Below are positions 1 through 12,968 of a stretch of DNA of 12,968 nucleotides, in pieces (positions within the stretch are counted from its first letter, which is position 1; each line of letters starts with the position of its first letter). Below the pieces are notes generated by a model. The model saw only the letters and a program-made list of their open reading frames with translations. It had not been told where the DNA came from and did not search any database. The translations under genes were made by a program, and so were the position numbers. Source of the DNA: Escherichia coli (GTDB lineage Bacteria > Pseudomonadota > Gammaproteobacteria > Enterobacterales > Enterobacteriaceae); NCBI RefSeq assembly GCF_003334355.1, contig NZ_QOWP01000052.1. The stretch is one strand, 5' to 3'.

Positions 1-125
1 TGCAGTTGCCATGTTTTACGGCAGTGAGAGCAGAGATAGCGCTGATGTCCGGCAGTGCTTTTGCCGTTACGCACCACGCCTTCAGTAGCGGAGCAGGAAG
101 GACATCTGATGGAAATGGAAGCCAC
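1..125 (-). CDS. insA: IS1 InsA (transposition repressor / N-terminal transposase part), 5' portion only; partial at window edge
   Basis: Minus-strand translation from GTG (complement of 123-125) gives [42 protein letters not shown], the InsA zinc-finger N-terminus (CxxC...CxxC), recalled from memory. The gene runs off the window start. Confidence 0.8.
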
Positions 126-180
126 GCAAGCACCTTAAAATCACCATCATACACTAAATCAGTAAGTTGGCAGCATTACC
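1..180 (-). mobile_element. IS1 insertion sequence, left (IRL/insA) end; element continues beyond the window start
   Basis: Reverse complement of 1-180 reads GGTAATGCTGCCAACTTACTGATTTAGTGTATGATGGTG... (the IS1 left inverted repeat) followed by the insA start and coding sequence. The terminal inverted repeat maps to 158-180, with the element boundary at 180/181. Confidence 0.9.
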
Positions 181-916: not shown

Positions 917-1771
917 ATGGATGCCCTTAGCCGTTTGTTGATGCTTAACGCTCCACAAGGAACGATCGATAAGAATTGCGTGTTAGGAAGTGACTGGCAG
1001 CTTCCACATGGTGCCGGGGAATTATCGGTTATTCGTTGGCATGCGTTAACGCAAGGAGCGGCGAAGCTGGAAATGCCGACGGGGGAGATTTTTACATTAC
1101 GCCCGGGAAATGTGGTCCTGCTACCACAAAATTCAGCCCATCGCCTGAGTCATGTCGATAATGAATCAACCTGTATTGTCTGCGGCACTCTTCGGCTGCA
1201 ACATTCGGCGCGTTATTTTTTAACGTCTTTGCCGGAAACGCTGTTTTTAGCACCGGTTAACCACAGCGTAGAATATAACTGGCTGAGGGAGGCGATCCCG
1301 TTTTTACAACAGGAATCCAGATTGGCAATGCCGGGAGTGGATGCACTGTGTAGCCAGATCTGCGCTACATTCTTTACCCTCGCGGTGCGTGAGTGGATTG
1401 CACAGGTTAATACTGAGAAAAACATTCTCAGTTTGCTTCTGCATCCACGTCTTGGTGCGGTAATACAGCAAATGTTGGAAATGCCAGGACACGCCTGGAC
1501 CGTCGAATCGCTGGCCAGCATCGCCCACATGTCCCGGGCAAGTTTTGCCCAGCTTTTCCGTGATGTTTCCGGAACCACGCCGCTGGCTGTATTAACAAAG
1601 TTGCGTCTACAAATAGCGGCCCAGATGTTTTCCCGGGAAACGCTCCCTGTTGTGGTGATCGCTGAGTCAGTAGGCTATGCCAGTGAATCATCTTTTCACA
1701 AGGCGTTTGTCCGCGAGTTTGGTTGTACCCCGGGAGAATATCGGGAAAGGGTCAGACAGCTTGCACCCTGA
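917..1771 (+). CDS. rclR: AraC-family transcriptional activator RclR (reactive chlorine-responsive regulator; YkgD)
   Basis: 284-aa ORF with an AGGAG Shine-Dalgarno 6 nt upstream of the ATG. The C-terminal sequence shows the AraC helix-turn-helix signature (...SFAQLFRDVSGTTPLAVLTKLRLQIAAQMF...VGYASESSFHKAFVREFGCTPGEYR). The N-terminal domain carries cysteines, consistent with RclR. Position is divergent from rclA. Confidence 0.9.
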   Translation: MDALSRLLMLNAPQGTIDKNCVLGSDWQLPHGAGELSVIRWHALTQGAAKLEMPTGEIFTLRPGNVVLLPQNSAHRLSHVDNESTCIVCGTLRLQHSARYFLTSLPETLFLAPVNHSVEYNWLREAIPFLQQESRLAMPGVDALCSQICATFFTLAVREWIAQVNTEKNILSLLLHPRLGAVIQQMLEMPGHAWTVESLASIAHMSRASFAQLFRDVSGTTPLAVLTKLRLQIAAQMFSRETLPVVVIAESVGYASESSFHKAFVREFGCTPGEYRERVRQLAP

Positions 1772-2296
1772 ATAAAACCGCCAGAAATCAGGGCAAAGAT
1801 AATCCGCATTCCGGGAGTTGTGAGCCTTTCAACTATTTCTATTTCCAACGGTGGTTTGGGCTTTATATATTTTTTCTGATGGACTCTAGCTCAGTTTTTA
1901 AATAAAAATGCAAACTAAATTGCTTCAATTAAATAAAATCCCGACTATTACTTGATACGTGATTATTGTCGGTGATTTTTTTGTACACCATCAGTGTATA
2001 TCTCAATAACCCCTGAATAAGTAGCTCTGAATAGGTATAAGGGATGTAGCCATTTTTAAATGGATTTCTTATGCCAAAAATGATCGTCGATTTCCCCATA
2101 AAATGTGAGCGATGCCGAAAGAAATAAAATTAGTTATTGCATTTGACGTTTGGATGAAAGATTATCATTTGTCATACAAATGAGGGGTGGTATGTTGCTA
2201 GCCAATTAAAAAGAACGCCATATTTATTGATGATTGATCCCCCGGTGGGGGGGAAACATCGGGCATAAATGGGCATGAAGTAATGGAGTATTAGTT

Positions 2297-3016
2297 GTGA
2301 ATGTCAATTTCTTTGTCACCTGTATTGGTGACGCCCTGAAATCAAGAATGGCACGAGACTCCGTGCTGCTACTGGAAAAACTCGGCTGTCGCGTAAATTT
2401 CCCGGAGAAACAGGGATGCTGCGGTCAGCCTGCGATCAATAGCGGTTATATCAAAGAAGCGATTCCAGGGATGAAAAATCTGATCGCCGCACTGGAGGAT
2501 AACGACGATCCCATTATTTCACCGGCTGGCTCTTGCACCTATGCCGTAAAAAGTTACCCGACGTATCTGGCGGATGAACCTGAATGGGCATCACGTGCCG
2601 AAAAGGTTGCCGCGCGTATGCAGGATCTCACCTCTTTTATTGTTAATAAATTAGGGGTAGTCGATGTAGGTGCCAGTTTGCAAGGGAGAGCTGTGTATCA
2701 CCCATCTTGTAGCCTGGCCCGTAAGCTGGGAGTGAAGGACGAGCCACTTACGCTGCTGAAAAATGTGCGTGGACTGGAGCTGTTGACCTTTGCTGAACAG
2801 GATACCTGCTGCGGATTTGGCGGCACGTTCTCGGTCAAAATGGCCGAAATATCCGGCGAGATGGTGAAAGAAAAGGTTGTGCACCTGATGGAAGTCCGCC
2901 CTGAGTATTTAATTGGTGCTGACGTGAGTTGCCTGCTGAACATCAGTGGGCGATTACAACGGGAAGGGCAGAAAGTCAAAGTGATGCATATTGCTGAAGT
3001 GTTGATGAGCCGCTGA
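2297..3016 (+). CDS. ykgE: LutA-like Fe-S oxidoreductase subunit (cysteine-rich CCG-domain protein) YkgE
   Basis: 239-aa ORF starting at GTG 2297, with GGAG 7 nt upstream. It carries cysteine-rich motifs (CCGQP, CCGFGG) typical of LutA/GlpC-type CCG domains. It is the first gene of a tightly packed three-gene operon. Confidence 0.88.
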   Translation: MNVNFFVTCIGDALKSRMARDSVLLLEKLGCRVNFPEKQGCCGQPAINSGYIKEAIPGMKNLIAALEDNDDPIISPAGSCTYAVKSYPTYLADEPEWASRAEKVAARMQDLTSFIVNKLGVVDVGASLQGRAVYHPSCSLARKLGVKDEPLTLLKNVRGLELLTFAEQDTCCGFGGTFSVKMAEISGEMVKEKVVHLMEVRPEYLIGADVSCLLNISGRLQREGQKVKVMHIAEVLMSR

Positions 3017-3026
3017 GGATATAAAG

Positions 3027-4454
3027 ATGTCGATCAAAACCAGTAATACAGATTTTAAGACACGCATCCGTCAGCAAATTGAAGATCCGATCATGCGCAA
3101 AGCGGTGGCAAACGCGCAGCAGCGTATTGGGGCAAATCGGCAAAAAATGGTCGATGAATTGGGGCACTGGGAGGAGTGGCGCGATCGGGCCGCCCAGATA
3201 CGTGATCATGTTCTGAGTAATCTCGACGCTTATCTGTACCAGCTCTCAGAAAAAGTGACGCAAAACGGCGGTCACGTCTATTTTGCAAGAACCAAAGAAG
3301 ACGCTACCCGCTACATTTTACAGGTTGCCCAACGCAAAAATGCCCGGAAGGTGGTGAAATCTAAATCGATGGTGACCGAAGAGATTGGTGTCAATCATGT
3401 GTTGCAGGATGCTGGCATTCAGGTGATTGAAACCGATCTGGGTGAATATATTCTCCAGCTGGATCAAGATCCGCCATCTCATGTTGTGGTCCCGGCAATT
3501 CATAAAGATCGCCATCAGATCCGTCGAGTGCTACACGAACGTCTGGGCTATGAGGGGCCGGAAACGCCTGAAGCGATGACCTTATTCATCCGGCAAAAAA
3601 TCCGCGAAGATTTCCTCAGTGCTGAAATAGGTATTACCGGCTGTAATTTCGCGGTGGCAGAGACCGGTTCGGTATGCCTGGTGACCAATGAAGGTAATGC
3701 GCGAATGTGTACCACGCTGCCTAAAACGCATATTGCAGTGATGGGAATGGAGCGTATTGCCCCCACGTTTGCCGAGGTAGATGTATTGATCACCATGCTG
3801 GCGCGCAGTGCCGTTGGTGCACGTTTGACGGGATACAACACCTGGCTGACAGGACCGCGCGAAGCTGGGCACGTTGATGGTCCTGAAGAGTTTCATCTGG
3901 TTATTGTCGATAACGGGCGTTCTGAGGTGCTGGCCTCTGAATTTCGGGATGTGCTGCGCTGTATTCGCTGCGGGGCTTGTATGAATACTTGTCCGGCATA
4001 TCGCCATATTGGCGGTCATGGATATGGCTCTATTTATCCAGGGCCAATTGGTGCGGTGATTTCTCCGCTACTTGGCGGCTATAAAGATTTTAAAGATTTA
4101 CCCTACGCCTGCTCTTTATGCACAGCTTGTGACAACGTGTGTCCGGTGCGTATTCCGCTGTCAAAACTGATTTTGCGTCATCGTCGGGTGATGGCTGAAA
4201 AAGGGATCACCGCAAAAGCAGAGCAACGGGCGATAAAAATGTTCGCTTATGCCAATAGTCATCCAGGATTGTGGAAAGTCGGGATGATGGCCGGTGCTCA
4301 TGCGGCAAGCTGGTTTATCAATGGCGGCAAAACACCACTCAAATTTGGCGCGATTAGCGACTGGATGGAAGCACGCGATCTTCCTGAAGCTGACGGAGAG
4401 AGTTTCCGTAGTTGGTTTAAGAAACATCAGGCGCAGGAGAAAAAGAATGGATAA
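3027..4454 (+). CDS. ykgF: LutB-like iron-sulfur protein with two 4Fe-4S ferredoxin motifs, YkgF
   Basis: 475-aa ORF beginning 10 bp after the ykgE stop. It contains two ferredoxin-type clusters, CIRCGACMNTCP and CSLCTACDNVCP. Confidence 0.9.
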   Translation: MSIKTSNTDFKTRIRQQIEDPIMRKAVANAQQRIGANRQKMVDELGHWEEWRDRAAQIRDHVLSNLDAYLYQLSEKVTQNGGHVYFARTKEDATRYILQVAQRKNARKVVKSKSMVTEEIGVNHVLQDAGIQVIETDLGEYILQLDQDPPSHVVVPAIHKDRHQIRRVLHERLGYEGPETPEAMTLFIRQKIREDFLSAEIGITGCNFAVAETGSVCLVTNEGNARMCTTLPKTHIAVMGMERIAPTFAEVDVLITMLARSAVGARLTGYNTWLTGPREAGHVDGPEEFHLVIVDNGRSEVLASEFRDVLRCIRCGACMNTCPAYRHIGGHGYGSIYPGPIGAVISPLLGGYKDFKDLPYACSLCTACDNVCPVRIPLSKLILRHRRVMAEKGITAKAEQRAIKMFAYANSHPGLWKVGMMAGAHAASWFINGGKTPLKFGAISDWMEARDLPEADGESFRSWFKKHQAQEKKNG

Positions 4455-5142
4455 TCGAGGCGAATTTTTGAATAACGTTGCTCAGGCACTGGGTCGCCCG
4501 CTGCGACTTGAACCGCAAGCAGAAGATGCGCCGCTTAACAACTATGCTAACGAGCGGCTTACCCAACTTAACCAACAGCAGCGCTGTGACGCGTTTATTC
4601 AGTTTGCCAGCGATGTTATGTTGACGCGCTGTGAGCTGACCAGCGAGGCGAAGGCGGCAGAAGCTGCAATACGTCTGTGTAAAGAGCTGGGAGATCAGTC
4701 GGTCGTGATTAGCGGTGACACGAGGCTGGAGGAATTGGGGATTAGCGAACGTTTGCAGCAGGAATGCAATGCCGTTGTTTGGGATCCGGCGAAAGGTGCC
4801 GAGAATATCTCGCAGGCAGAGCAGGCTAAAGTGGGTGTTGTGTATGCTGAATATGGTTTAACCGAATCGGGAGGCGTGGTTCTTTTTTCCGCCGCCGAGC
4901 GCGGGCGTTCATTGAGCCTGCTCCCGGAATATTCTCTTTTTATCCTGCGTAAAAGCACTATCCTGCCGCGTGTAGCGCAACTCGCAGAAAAATTGCATCA
5001 GAAAGCGCAGGCCGGTGAACGAATGCCTTCCTGCATTAACATCATTAGCGGCCCCAGTTCAACGGCGGATATTGAGCTTATCAAAGTCGTCGGAGTTCAT
5101 GGCCCGGTGAAAGCGGTGTATCTGATTATTGAGGATTGTTGA
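4447..5142 (+). CDS. ykgG: LutC-like protein YkgG (third subunit of the LutABC-type complex)
   Basis: The ATG at 4447 lies inside the sequence AAGAATGGATAA, overlapping the ykgF stop by 8 nt, which indicates translational coupling. The product begins MDNRGEFLNNVAQALGRP... and is 231 aa. The longer track ORF from 4294 is an in-frame upstream extension inside ykgF. Confidence 0.85.
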   Translation: MDNRGEFLNNVAQALGRPLRLEPQAEDAPLNNYANERLTQLNQQQRCDAFIQFASDVMLTRCELTSEAKAAEAAIRLCKELGDQSVVISGDTRLEELGISERLQQECNAVVWDPAKGAENISQAEQAKVGVVYAEYGLTESGGVVLFSAAERGRSLSLLPEYSLFILRKSTILPRVAQLAEKLHQKAQAGERMPSCINIISGPSSTADIELIKVVGVHGPVKAVYLIIEDC

Positions 5143-5248: not shown

Positions 5249-5289
5249 CTGTAAATATCCTGGTATTACCAATGCCAGGATATTTACAG
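5249..5289. repeat. Perfect 15-bp inverted repeat (CTGTAAATATCCTGG / CCAGGATATTTACAG) with an 11-nt loop, in the convergent ykgG-ykgH intergenic region
   Basis: Read directly from the sequence: left arm 5249-5263, right arm 5275-5289. It could act as a bidirectional terminator or a protein-binding palindrome, but no U-tract follows on either strand. Confidence 0.6.
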
Positions 5290-12234: not shown

Positions 12235-12891
12235 TACCTCTTGATACGTTATATCTATACGGTTAAGCCCTTAGTATCTATTGATGATTACCAGACAACA
12301 GATAATAAAAAAGAAAAGAACTATTGCAGCCCAAAACCTACATTTGGGCTGTTGCGAATGTTCAATAAGTTTAGTCTTATTTAATGTAAATATTGCTGAT
12401 CATTTGAAATGACGCATTATTCATGAGAAATGTGTATCGTAAATCAACTGAAATTAACGCAACCATTTGTTATTTAAGGTTTAATTATCTGTGTGTGATA
12501 TTTTATTGAATGTTTTAAATATTGTTTTTATTGGCATTGCTATAATATTGGTTATCATTTGCTGAATGGATTCAGTCTTAATGAGTGGGTTTTTAAGGGA
12601 CAGGCATAGAGTAATGATACGTATGCATAACCAACATCTTTACTCATTATGTCATTGAATGTTGACGCTATGTGTTTATGAGGGAGAGGTATTTTCAGTT
12701 GATCTGGATTGTTAAATTCATATAATGCGCCTTTGCTCATGAATGGATGCCAGTATGTAGTGGGGAATTATAAATATTGAAATAGTCCAACTACTTCTTT
12801 ATTACCAAAAATGAGTATCTGAATTTTAATATTGCATTCTTGCGTGATTATCTCCTGAGTTTGACTTGTGATTACCTTTTTAAGGTATTTA

Positions 12892-12968
12892 GGTAATGAC
12901 TCCAACTTATTGATAGTGTTTTATGTTCAGATAATGCCCGATGACTTTGTCATGCAGCTCCACCGATT
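12892..12968 (-). mobile_element. IS1 insertion sequence, right (IRR/insB 3') end; element continues beyond the window end
   Basis: 12892-12968 reads GGTAATGACTCCAACTTATTGATAGTGTTTTATGTTCAGATAATGCCCGATGACTTTGTCATGCAGCTCCACCGATT, which is the IS1 IRR read inward. It has the same orientation as the copy at 1-180. Confidence 0.9.
12907..12968 (-). CDS. insB: IS1 InsB (transposase) C-terminal end; partial at window edge
   Basis: Minus-strand translation gives ...SVELHDKVIGHYLNIKHYQ*, with the TAA stop (complement of 12907-12909) lying inside the terminal inverted repeat, as in IS1. Confidence 0.7.
   Translation of the reverse strand, partial: SVELHDKVIGHYLNIKHYQ

Follow-up and report, generated by a model that had tools for sequence, protein, structure and literature searches.

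The window analysed here, a 12,968-nucleotide stretch of an Escherichia coli contig (NCBI RefSeq assembly GCF_003334355.1, contig NZ_QOWP01000052.1), carries the genes ykgE, ykgF and ykgG between rclR, which lies on the same strand 525 bp upstream, and the convergent ykgH (Table 1). The three genes are already known: they are annotated in RefSeq and belong to a described family, and for E. coli both a phenotype and a regulator have been published. Their Pfam matches (E-values from 1e-15 to 6e-52) and their presence in 5250 of 5426 complete E. coli genomes identify them as real genes rather than chance open reading frames; in 5105 of those genomes they are intact at 95% identity or more, and in the present strain ykgF and ykgG are DNA-identical to those of MG1655. 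Each start is preceded at about 7 nt by a GGAG or GAGGA Shine-Dalgarno sequence. The program-made list of open reading frames puts the ykgG start further upstream, at the GTG of position 4294, but the ATG at 4447 is taken here as its start, since this is the RefSeq start and carries a Shine-Dalgarno sequence.

Table 1. Genes and putative regulatory features of the ykgEFG locus, in positions of the window.
Feature	Position	Strand	Description
Candidate activator site	2104..2129	+	Conserved block TGTGAGCG.GCCGAAAGAAATAAA, midpoint roughly 55-60 bp upstream of the putative transcription start
Inferred -35 hexamer	2137..2142	+	TTGCAT, invariant in a 6-sequence footprint; 17 bp from the -10
Inferred -10 hexamer	2160..2165	+	GATTAT; GGATTAT invariant in the 6-sequence footprint
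YieP operator	2165..2183	.	Perfect inverted repeat TCATTTGT-CAT-ACAAATGA (8+3+8), 19-bp palindrome
ykgE (lutA/lldE)	2297..3016	+	239 aa, GTG start; two CCG cysteine-rich domains
ykgF (lutB/lldF)	3027..4454	+	475 aa; LUD, 2x[4Fe-4S] ferredoxin and LutB C-terminal domains
ykgG (lutC/lldG)	4447..5142	+	231 aa from ATG; LUD domain only
Hairpin between convergent ykgG and ykgH	5249..5289	.	19 bp, arms 95% complementary, 3-nt loop

An earlier reading of this DNA, made from the sequence only, had described three packed frames, and the coordinates bear this out: ykgE and ykgF are separated by 10 bp (3017-3026), and the stop of ykgF overlaps the start of ykgG by 8 nt (ATGGATAA at 4447-4454). For comparison, 79 related loci were assembled, with YkgF identities of 55-96% and reaching as far as Bacillales; the close-packed junctions are kept across the set, as is the E-F-G gene order (79/79), with G following F in 78. 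The genes would form a single, tightly packed transcription unit. The conserved junctions are compatible with translational coupling, whereas the stoichiometric co-translation that the sequence-only reading derived from them is not proven by packing.

The domain content of the products also agrees with that reading, which had noted CCG motifs in YkgE and two CxxCxxCxxxCP ferredoxin motifs in YkgF. In YkgE two CCG motifs are found, C41-C42-G43 and C171-C172-G173, within two Pfam CCG domains (PF02754, E-values 1.3e-15 and 5e-15), and all nine cysteines of the protein (C9, C31, C41-C42 and C80 in the first domain; C138, C171-C172 and C212 in the second) are at least 99% conserved among 75 orthologues. 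YkgF, with ferredoxin motifs at C312/315/318/322-P323 and C362/365/368/372-P373, matches LUD_dom (5.9e-52), Fer4_8 (5.7e-14) and LutB_C (1.7e-9) in Pfam, and passes the curated equivalog model TIGR00273 with 778.7 bits against a cut-off of 444.8. YkgG matches the LUD domain (PF02589, E-value 5.5e-30) and, in the PDB, the Deinococcus LutC structure 2g40 (E-value 2.5e-10), and is weakly paralogous to the LUD domain of YkgF. None of the three subunits has a flavin domain.

These features support the assignment of YkgEFG to the LutABC/LldEFG-type Fe-S oxidoreductases, an architecture already recognised in the sequence-only reading and one for which profile searches with all three proteins returned Lut or LUD matches, in agreement with comparative genomics. 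Gene order and domains are the same as in Bacillus subtilis LutABC (YvfV-YvfW-YvbY), namely 2xCCG, LUD+Fer4_8+LutB_C, and LUD, and Bacillales orthologues share 46-54% identity with YkgE, 55-59% with YkgF and 34-41% with YkgG. One difference concerns C362, the first cysteine of the second ferredoxin motif of YkgF, which is present in E. coli but missing from many Bacillales (61% conserved). In the literature, YkgEFG is likened to the respiratory L-lactate dehydrogenases LldEFG of Shewanella oneidensis and LldEFG/LutABC of Campylobacter and Helicobacter, of which it is regarded as the orthologue, with the third Shewanella subunit (SO1518) treated as a separate, divergent form (PMC9701030).

More distant relatives bear on how the subunits may be arranged. 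The Desulfovibrio-type LdhH (NF045670; L-lactate dehydrogenase (quinone) large subunit) is a LutB-LutA fusion, whereas YkgF and YkgE are separate polypeptides; YkgF aligns with this model at 2-464 (426 bits) and YkgE with its C-terminal third, at 468-705 (184 bits), both far under its 800-bit cut-off, and no NCBIfam model was passed by YkgE or YkgG. That the fusion model spans YkgF and then YkgE end to end supports a direct complex between the two proteins. In the PDB, sequence searches returned relatives of heterodisulfide reductase and the one LutC, with nothing for LutA or LutB. HdrB aligns with the CCG domains of YkgE, also at cysteines that bind its non-cubane [4Fe-4S] clusters, and the YkgF ferredoxin domain matches HdrC, with E-values of only 2e-4 to 6e-5. 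The five-cysteine CCG pattern CX31-39CCX35-36CXXC is, moreover, altered in YkgE, which has a single cysteine where HdrB has CxxC, as well as the extra conserved C31, and heterodisulfide chemistry as in Hdr is not expected of YkgE/YkgF. Matches of the YkgEFG proteins to GlcF and GlpC are weaker.

The promoter region holds a conserved regulatory map. The block assigned to a candidate activator hardly changes from E. coli to four Citrobacter loci despite their different flanking genes, and the palindrome directly downstream of the conserved -35 and -10 hexamers shows no variation between E. coli and Citrobacter and contains an exact match, at 2167-2181, to the YieP motif published from ChIP-exo, atTTGTaTGAcaAAT. 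Mass spectrometry identified YieP on the ykgE promoter, with confirmation from a knockout, in a Reg-Seq dissection that described YieP as the repressor and assigned one activator site to FNR (PMC7567609); deleting yieP derepresses ykgE, ykgF and ykgG about 10-fold, and binding is seen by ChIP-exo (PMC7642389). The position of the inferred -35 upstream of the YieP site agrees with the Reg-Seq description. A promoter proposed by a generic scan, with a -35 TTGTCA at 2169 and a -10 TATGTT at 2191, was rejected as the main promoter because Citrobacter does not share this -10 and because the polymerase, according to Reg-Seq, sits upstream of the YieP site. The FNR consensus TTGAT-N4-ATCAA, allowing up to two mismatches, has no match at 1772-2296, and the Reg-Seq FNR site was not placed. 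This map, comprising the upstream block, the -35/-10 hexamers and the YieP operator, could guide promoter experiments.

In the ykgE leader, the RNA from 2172 to 2310, which includes a C5-GGT-G7 hairpin, folds no better than its shuffles (z = -0.39), and an Rfam search of the whole window gave no match, so that a riboswitch or attenuator there is unsupported; the sole difference from the MG1655 leader is one letter in an A-run at 2207, outside the G-tract. No small open reading frame in the 525-bp intergenic region is annotated or supported. Past ykgG, a terminator scan called no intrinsic terminator, and the hairpin listed in Table 1 has no U-tract on either strand. The 161-nt ykgG–ykgH region folds with z = -4.0, and the hairpin may mark the end of the operon or stabilise the RNA.

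What surrounds the operon differs from one related locus to another. The lactate permease gene lctP is adjacent in 50 of the 79 loci, a linkage typical of gammaproteobacterial lldEFG loci; about 27 have a GntR/FadR regulator near the operon, and 3 have Dld. Bacillales lut loci have an adjacent GntR/FadR regulator and often lctP as well, whereas no permease or lactate regulator is found among the neighbours in E. coli, where the unlinked YieP serves instead. YieP was considered as a displaced orthologue of the Bacillales LutR-type regulator and set aside, its 27-30% identity indicating only family-level similarity.

The physiological evidence centres on L-lactate. A 2022 study of E. coli MP1 found that ΔykgEFG causes a fitness loss specific to L-lactate with nitrate and not seen with D-lactate (PMC9701030). 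The earlier statement that the substrate in enterobacteria is not settled is, given this phenotype and the published YieP/FNR regulation, partly out of date. Other studies have counted ykgEFG, like lldD and dld, among the membrane-associated lactate oxidoreductases able to oxidise 2,4-dihydroxybutyrate (PMC13279387), and have removed ykgF, lldD, dld and glcD together so that lactate would no longer be consumed (PMC11118208).

We consider it highly probable that ykgEFG encodes a three-subunit, flavin-domain-free Fe-S L-lactate dehydrogenase of the LutABC/LldEFG family, under YieP control, working as follows. The LUD domains of YkgF and YkgG, paralogues that probably associate with each other, would be where L-lactate is oxidised to pyruvate, and the invariant residues C206, H218, R154 and R175 may line the active site beside a cluster. 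Electrons would then travel by way of the two [4Fe-4S]-type sites in YkgF to YkgE, whose CCG domains are likened to those of HdrB, GlcF and GlpC, and from YkgE to the respiratory chain, with a quinone as the presumed acceptor, so that the enzyme would support anaerobic respiration, for example with nitrate. YieP, a GntR/FadR-type protein, blocks the promoter (putative -35 at 2137, -10 at 2160) through the palindrome, which probably lies over the transcription start, predicted at about 2171-2173, and FNR has been reported as an upstream activator. Several observations weigh against this account: K-12 has no L-lactate phenotype according to a passage of PMC7984374 that cites Chai 2009, the mutant shows no defect in mouse colitis models (PMC9701030), and over-expression left lactate titres unchanged; to these may be added the lack of a linked permease or regulator, of an NCBIfam model passed by YkgE or YkgG, and of an FNR site matching the consensus.

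One alternative is that the substrate in E. coli is mainly another 2-hydroxy acid, or a broad range of them, and that the operon and the 3-hydroxypropionate exporter YohJK are parts of one hydroxy-acid response governed by YieP. The fullest form of this idea casts YkgEFG as more than a back-up L-lactate dehydrogenase, namely as a broad 2-hydroxy-acid:quinone oxidoreductase, the catabolic arm paired with YohJK, switched on anaerobically (FNR) by a YieP ligand; if true, the flavin-free LUD and non-cubane Fe-S chemistry of YkgEFG would be mechanistically new. In keeping with this proposal, ykgEFG and yohJK are the two operons most strongly repressed by YieP (PMC7642389), 2,4-dihydroxybutyrate is a reported substrate, aerobic L-lactate is already handled by LldD (PMC9701030), and the lactate permease linked in 50 of 79 relatives is missing here, as is an LldR-type regulator. 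Yet the ΔykgEFG phenotype is confined to L-lactate, the mutant was unremarkable in 3-HP tolerance tests, and YkgF is 55-57% identical to Bacillales LutB and has orthologues that adjoin lctP. We regard both the general idea and its fuller form as unlikely, though deserving some weight.

Another possibility is that ykgEFG is essentially cryptic in K-12-like strains, being tightly repressed, redundant with LldD and of little natural consequence. Low RNA-seq counts of 10-40 CPM (PMC12096828 Dataset S1), the roughly 10-fold derepression that follows yieP deletion, the reported lack of a lactate phenotype in K-12 and the absence of a defect in mouse models would all fit. Against this stand the integrity of the operon in 5105 of 5426 complete genomes, the DNA identity of ykgF and ykgG to MG1655, the conservation of every cofactor cysteine, and the measurable fitness effect with nitrate and L-lactate, and we judge this explanation improbable.

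The link to oxidative or chlorine stress that the sequence-only reading had raised from the position beside rclR and rclA finds no support. In none of the 79 related loci is rclR, rclA or ykgH found near ykgEFG; a second E. coli-type locus and Citrobacter, at 95% identity, are among them. The juxtaposition is confined to the main lineage of E. coli and is an accident of its gene order; the operator that is conserved and moves with the operon is that of YieP. RNA-seq under HOSCN (PMC12096828 Dataset S1) shows rclA, rclB and rclC rising 11-32-fold in the wild type (log2FC 5.0, 3.5 and 4.4), against 1.4-3.2-fold for ykgE, ykgF and ykgG (0.5, 1.3 and 1.7); in ΔrclA, rclB and rclC reach 6.8-7.6 while ykgE, ykgF and ykgG stay flat at -0.9, -0.3 and +0.2, so the response of the operon is uncoupled from RclR activation. 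The literature searched contained no publication linking ykgEFG with RclR. The proposal that ykgEFG is tied to the RclR reactive-chlorine response, by co-regulation or redox repair, is thus disfavoured and scarcely credible despite the same-strand neighbour 525 bp away and the small wild-type induction; the operon is repressed by YieP and shows no sign of control by RclR, and the present analysis removes the chlorine-stress hypothesis for it. In this strain, rclA is itself truncated by an IS1 element, whereas ykgEFG is intact.

The LutABC assignment put forward in the sequence-only reading is correct: by Pfam, YkgE consists of two CCG domains, YkgF has LUD, Fer4_8 and LutB_C, and YkgG has one LUD domain alone, a domain content that agrees with how LutA, LutB and LutC are defined in the literature (PMC3924224), and YkgF passes the LutB/LldF equivalog TIGR00273 with 778.7 bits against a cut-off of 444.8. 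The cysteine motifs described there (two CCG in YkgE, two CxxCxxCxxxCP in YkgF) and the tight packing of the ORFs, with a 10-bp E-F gap and the ykgF stop overlapping the ykgG start in ATGGATAA, are likewise borne out, and a GGAG-type Shine-Dalgarno sequence lies about 7 nt 5′ of every start. An ORF lister places the ykgG start at GTG 4294; RefSeq uses ATG 4447, and it is this codon that a Shine-Dalgarno sequence precedes. The model of LdhH, a fused Desulfovibrio-type lactate dehydrogenase, is tiled end to end by YkgF and then YkgE, a Rosetta-stone argument for a complex of the two.

Scanning one genome per species yielded 79 related loci (YkgF identity 55-96%) from Enterobacterales, Pasteurellaceae, Vibrionaceae, Sutterella and Bacillales, all of which keep the E-F-G order, mostly with overlaps or gaps of a few bases at the junctions. 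The operon is neighboured by an LctP-family lactate permease (TIGR00795, above cut-off) in 50 of the 79, by a GntR/FadR regulator in about 27 and by a D-lactate dehydrogenase in three, and is followed downstream by a LysR regulator in 13; these neighbours make a strong, annotation-independent case for lactate through guilt by association. In a Bacillus locus (L071), both LUD-containing subunits are duplicated locally, with another F-G pair directly after E-F-G. Another copy, 94-96% identical at the protein level, lies at L003:6271-9113 in SCPM-O-B-8794, a genome labelled E. coli, among wholly different neighbours (no rclR, ykgH or bet genes) and behind an identical YieP palindrome; either it was relocated or it belongs to a second lineage of the operon, one resembling that of Citrobacter. 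In a plasmid collection, 197 records carry DNA resembling window 2297-5142, ten of them at an identity of at least 99% (most being laboratory K-12 or cell-culture records of 214-242 kb) and 184, chiefly conjugative Klebsiella plasmids, at 80-90% only. These diverged records and a published plasmid, pFec10 (lctP-dld-ykgEFG), indicate that the diverged lactate module is mobile.

Published work has partly settled the physiological role, described earlier as unsettled, and the finding is not new. With a clean deletion of ykgEFG, E. coli MP1 was outcompeted only with L-lactate plus nitrate under anaerobic conditions, and not with D-lactate (PMC9701030). The operon has also been placed beside lldD and dld among the lactate oxidoreductases, all three being credited with oxidising 2,4-dihydroxybutyrate as well (PMC13279387), and ykgF was deleted in one study to stop lactate consumption (PMC11118208). 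Against a major role stand the statement, in a passage citing Chai 2009, that K-12 shows no L-lactate phenotype (PMC7984374), the lack of a ΔykgEFG defect in mouse colitis models (PMC9701030), a lactate titre unaffected by over-expression, and low ykgEFG transcript counts (PMC12096828 Dataset S1).

The proposed link to oxidative or chlorine stress through the neighbouring rclR and rclA found no support in the related loci, the operator or HOSCN RNA-seq, and a functional connection of ykgEFG with RclR is highly improbable. None of the 79 loci has rclR, rclA or ykgH near the operon, including Citrobacter at 95% identity and the second E. coli-labelled locus, and no paper in the literature collection searched connects ykgEFG with RclR; the YieP operator moves together with the operon across differing neighbours, and rclA itself is cut short by an IS1 in the source strain. 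Under HOSCN, rclA, rclB and rclC rose by log2 5.0, 3.5 and 4.4, as against 0.5, 1.3 and 1.7 for ykgE, ykgF and ykgG (PMC12096828 Dataset S1), and in ΔrclA rclB and rclC reached log2 6.8-7.6 with ykgEFG flat or down (PMC12096828). Given the low counts, the climb along b0306-b0308 from ykgE to ykgG could reflect noise, unequal stability of the mRNA or a start within the operon.

The promoter region carries the operator of YieP, a GntR/FadR-type repressor encoded elsewhere. The published ChIP-exo motif of YieP, atTTGTaTGAcaAAT (PMC7642389), matches exactly once in the whole window, at 2167-2181, and extends to a perfect 19-bp palindrome. An alignment of the sequences upstream of the operon at loci with differing neighbours (E. 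coli, another E. coli-type locus and four from Citrobacter) left four conserved islands (see table), from which we infer -35 and -10 elements 17 bp apart, with an operator covering the start. This layout agrees with the Reg-Seq repressor site downstream of the RNA polymerase site (PMC7567609) and with a comment in the literature that YieP sites usually lie downstream of promoters. Reg-Seq further assigned an activator site at the ykgE promoter to FNR (PMC7567609); no FNR consensus could be placed upstream of ykgE, so the block at the upstream end, which holds a CRP-like TGTGA half-site and no good full FNR or CRP site, is only a candidate and may be the activator site that Reg-Seq saw. In ΔyieP, all three genes were derepressed about 10-fold (PMC7642389), the best available evidence for their co-transcription.

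Features of the window and of the ykgE promoter region
Feature	Position	Strand	Remarks
IS1, left	1-180		final 180 bp; 100% identical to PSS-12 IS1
rclA′	691 down to 181	minus	partial gene; interrupted by left IS1 after ~170 codons
rclR	917-1771		
Upstream block	2104-2129		begins TGTGAGCG; almost unchanged from E. coli to Citrobacter; lies 5′ of inferred -35
TTGCAT	2137-2142		conserved island; inferred -35
GGATTAT	2159-2165		conserved island; inferred -10 region
YieP palindrome	2165-2183		conserved island; operator over inferred start
ykgE	2297-3016		GTG start
ykgF	3027-4454		
ykgG	4447-5142		ATG start
ykgH		minus	
betA, betB, betI (minus strand), betT			remaining genes
IS1, right	12896-12968		initial 73 bp; 100% identical to PSS-12 IS1

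All nine YkgE cysteines are at least 99% conserved and align with the CCG cysteines of the heterodisulfide reductase subunit HdrB, from which YkgE differs in having a single Cys per CxxC and an extra conserved C31 in domain 1. Seven of the eight YkgF ferredoxin-motif cysteines are invariant; the exception, C362 (window ~4110), the first Cys of the second motif, is 61% conserved among 77 orthologues and is Thr in the Bacillales representative L055. Since C206 of the LUD domain (window ~3642, GCNFA) is invariant, it might take the place of C362 in binding a cluster or might act in catalysis. YkgG, in which no cysteine is essential, retains R154, R175, D208, E210 and H218; its weak paralogy with the YkgF LUD domain and the dimeric LutC crystal structure (PMC3924224) suggest a LUD-LUD pair. 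Sequence searches of the PDB returned no LutA or LutB structure and Pfam no flavin or NAD domain in YkgE, YkgF or YkgG, so that the catalytic chemistry is inferred; ykgF of MG1655 (b0307; L083, NC_000913.3) also encodes LUD, Fer4_8 and LutB_C without an NAD(P) domain.

The window derives from the E. coli chromosome and, its two ends excluded, is 99.7% identical to K-12 MG1655; the DNA of ykgF and ykgG shows no difference, whereas four substitutions fall in ykgE and a single indel, in an A-run at 2207, falls in the leader. Complete E. coli genomes carry ykgEFG DNA in 5250 of 5426 cases. Between the convergent ykgG and ykgH, 5249-5289 forms a 19-bp hairpin (95% complementary, 3-nt loop) that folds far above shuffles (z = -4.0), with no U-tract on either strand. 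The IS1 pieces at the two ends share one orientation, so that 12.7 kb (rclA′-rclR-ykgEFG-ykgH-betABIT) is bracketed by direct copies in a composite-transposon-like arrangement. In the closest genome, PSS-12, the corresponding IS1 adjoins fdeC, which implies deletion of rclB, rclC and the remainder of rclA; a working rclABC operon is probably missing from the source strain, which has kept rclR. The right-hand IS1 lies upstream of the expected place of pdeL, and between it and betT, at ~12492-12566, is yahV, a 24-codon small gene annotated in MG1655 and other genomes.
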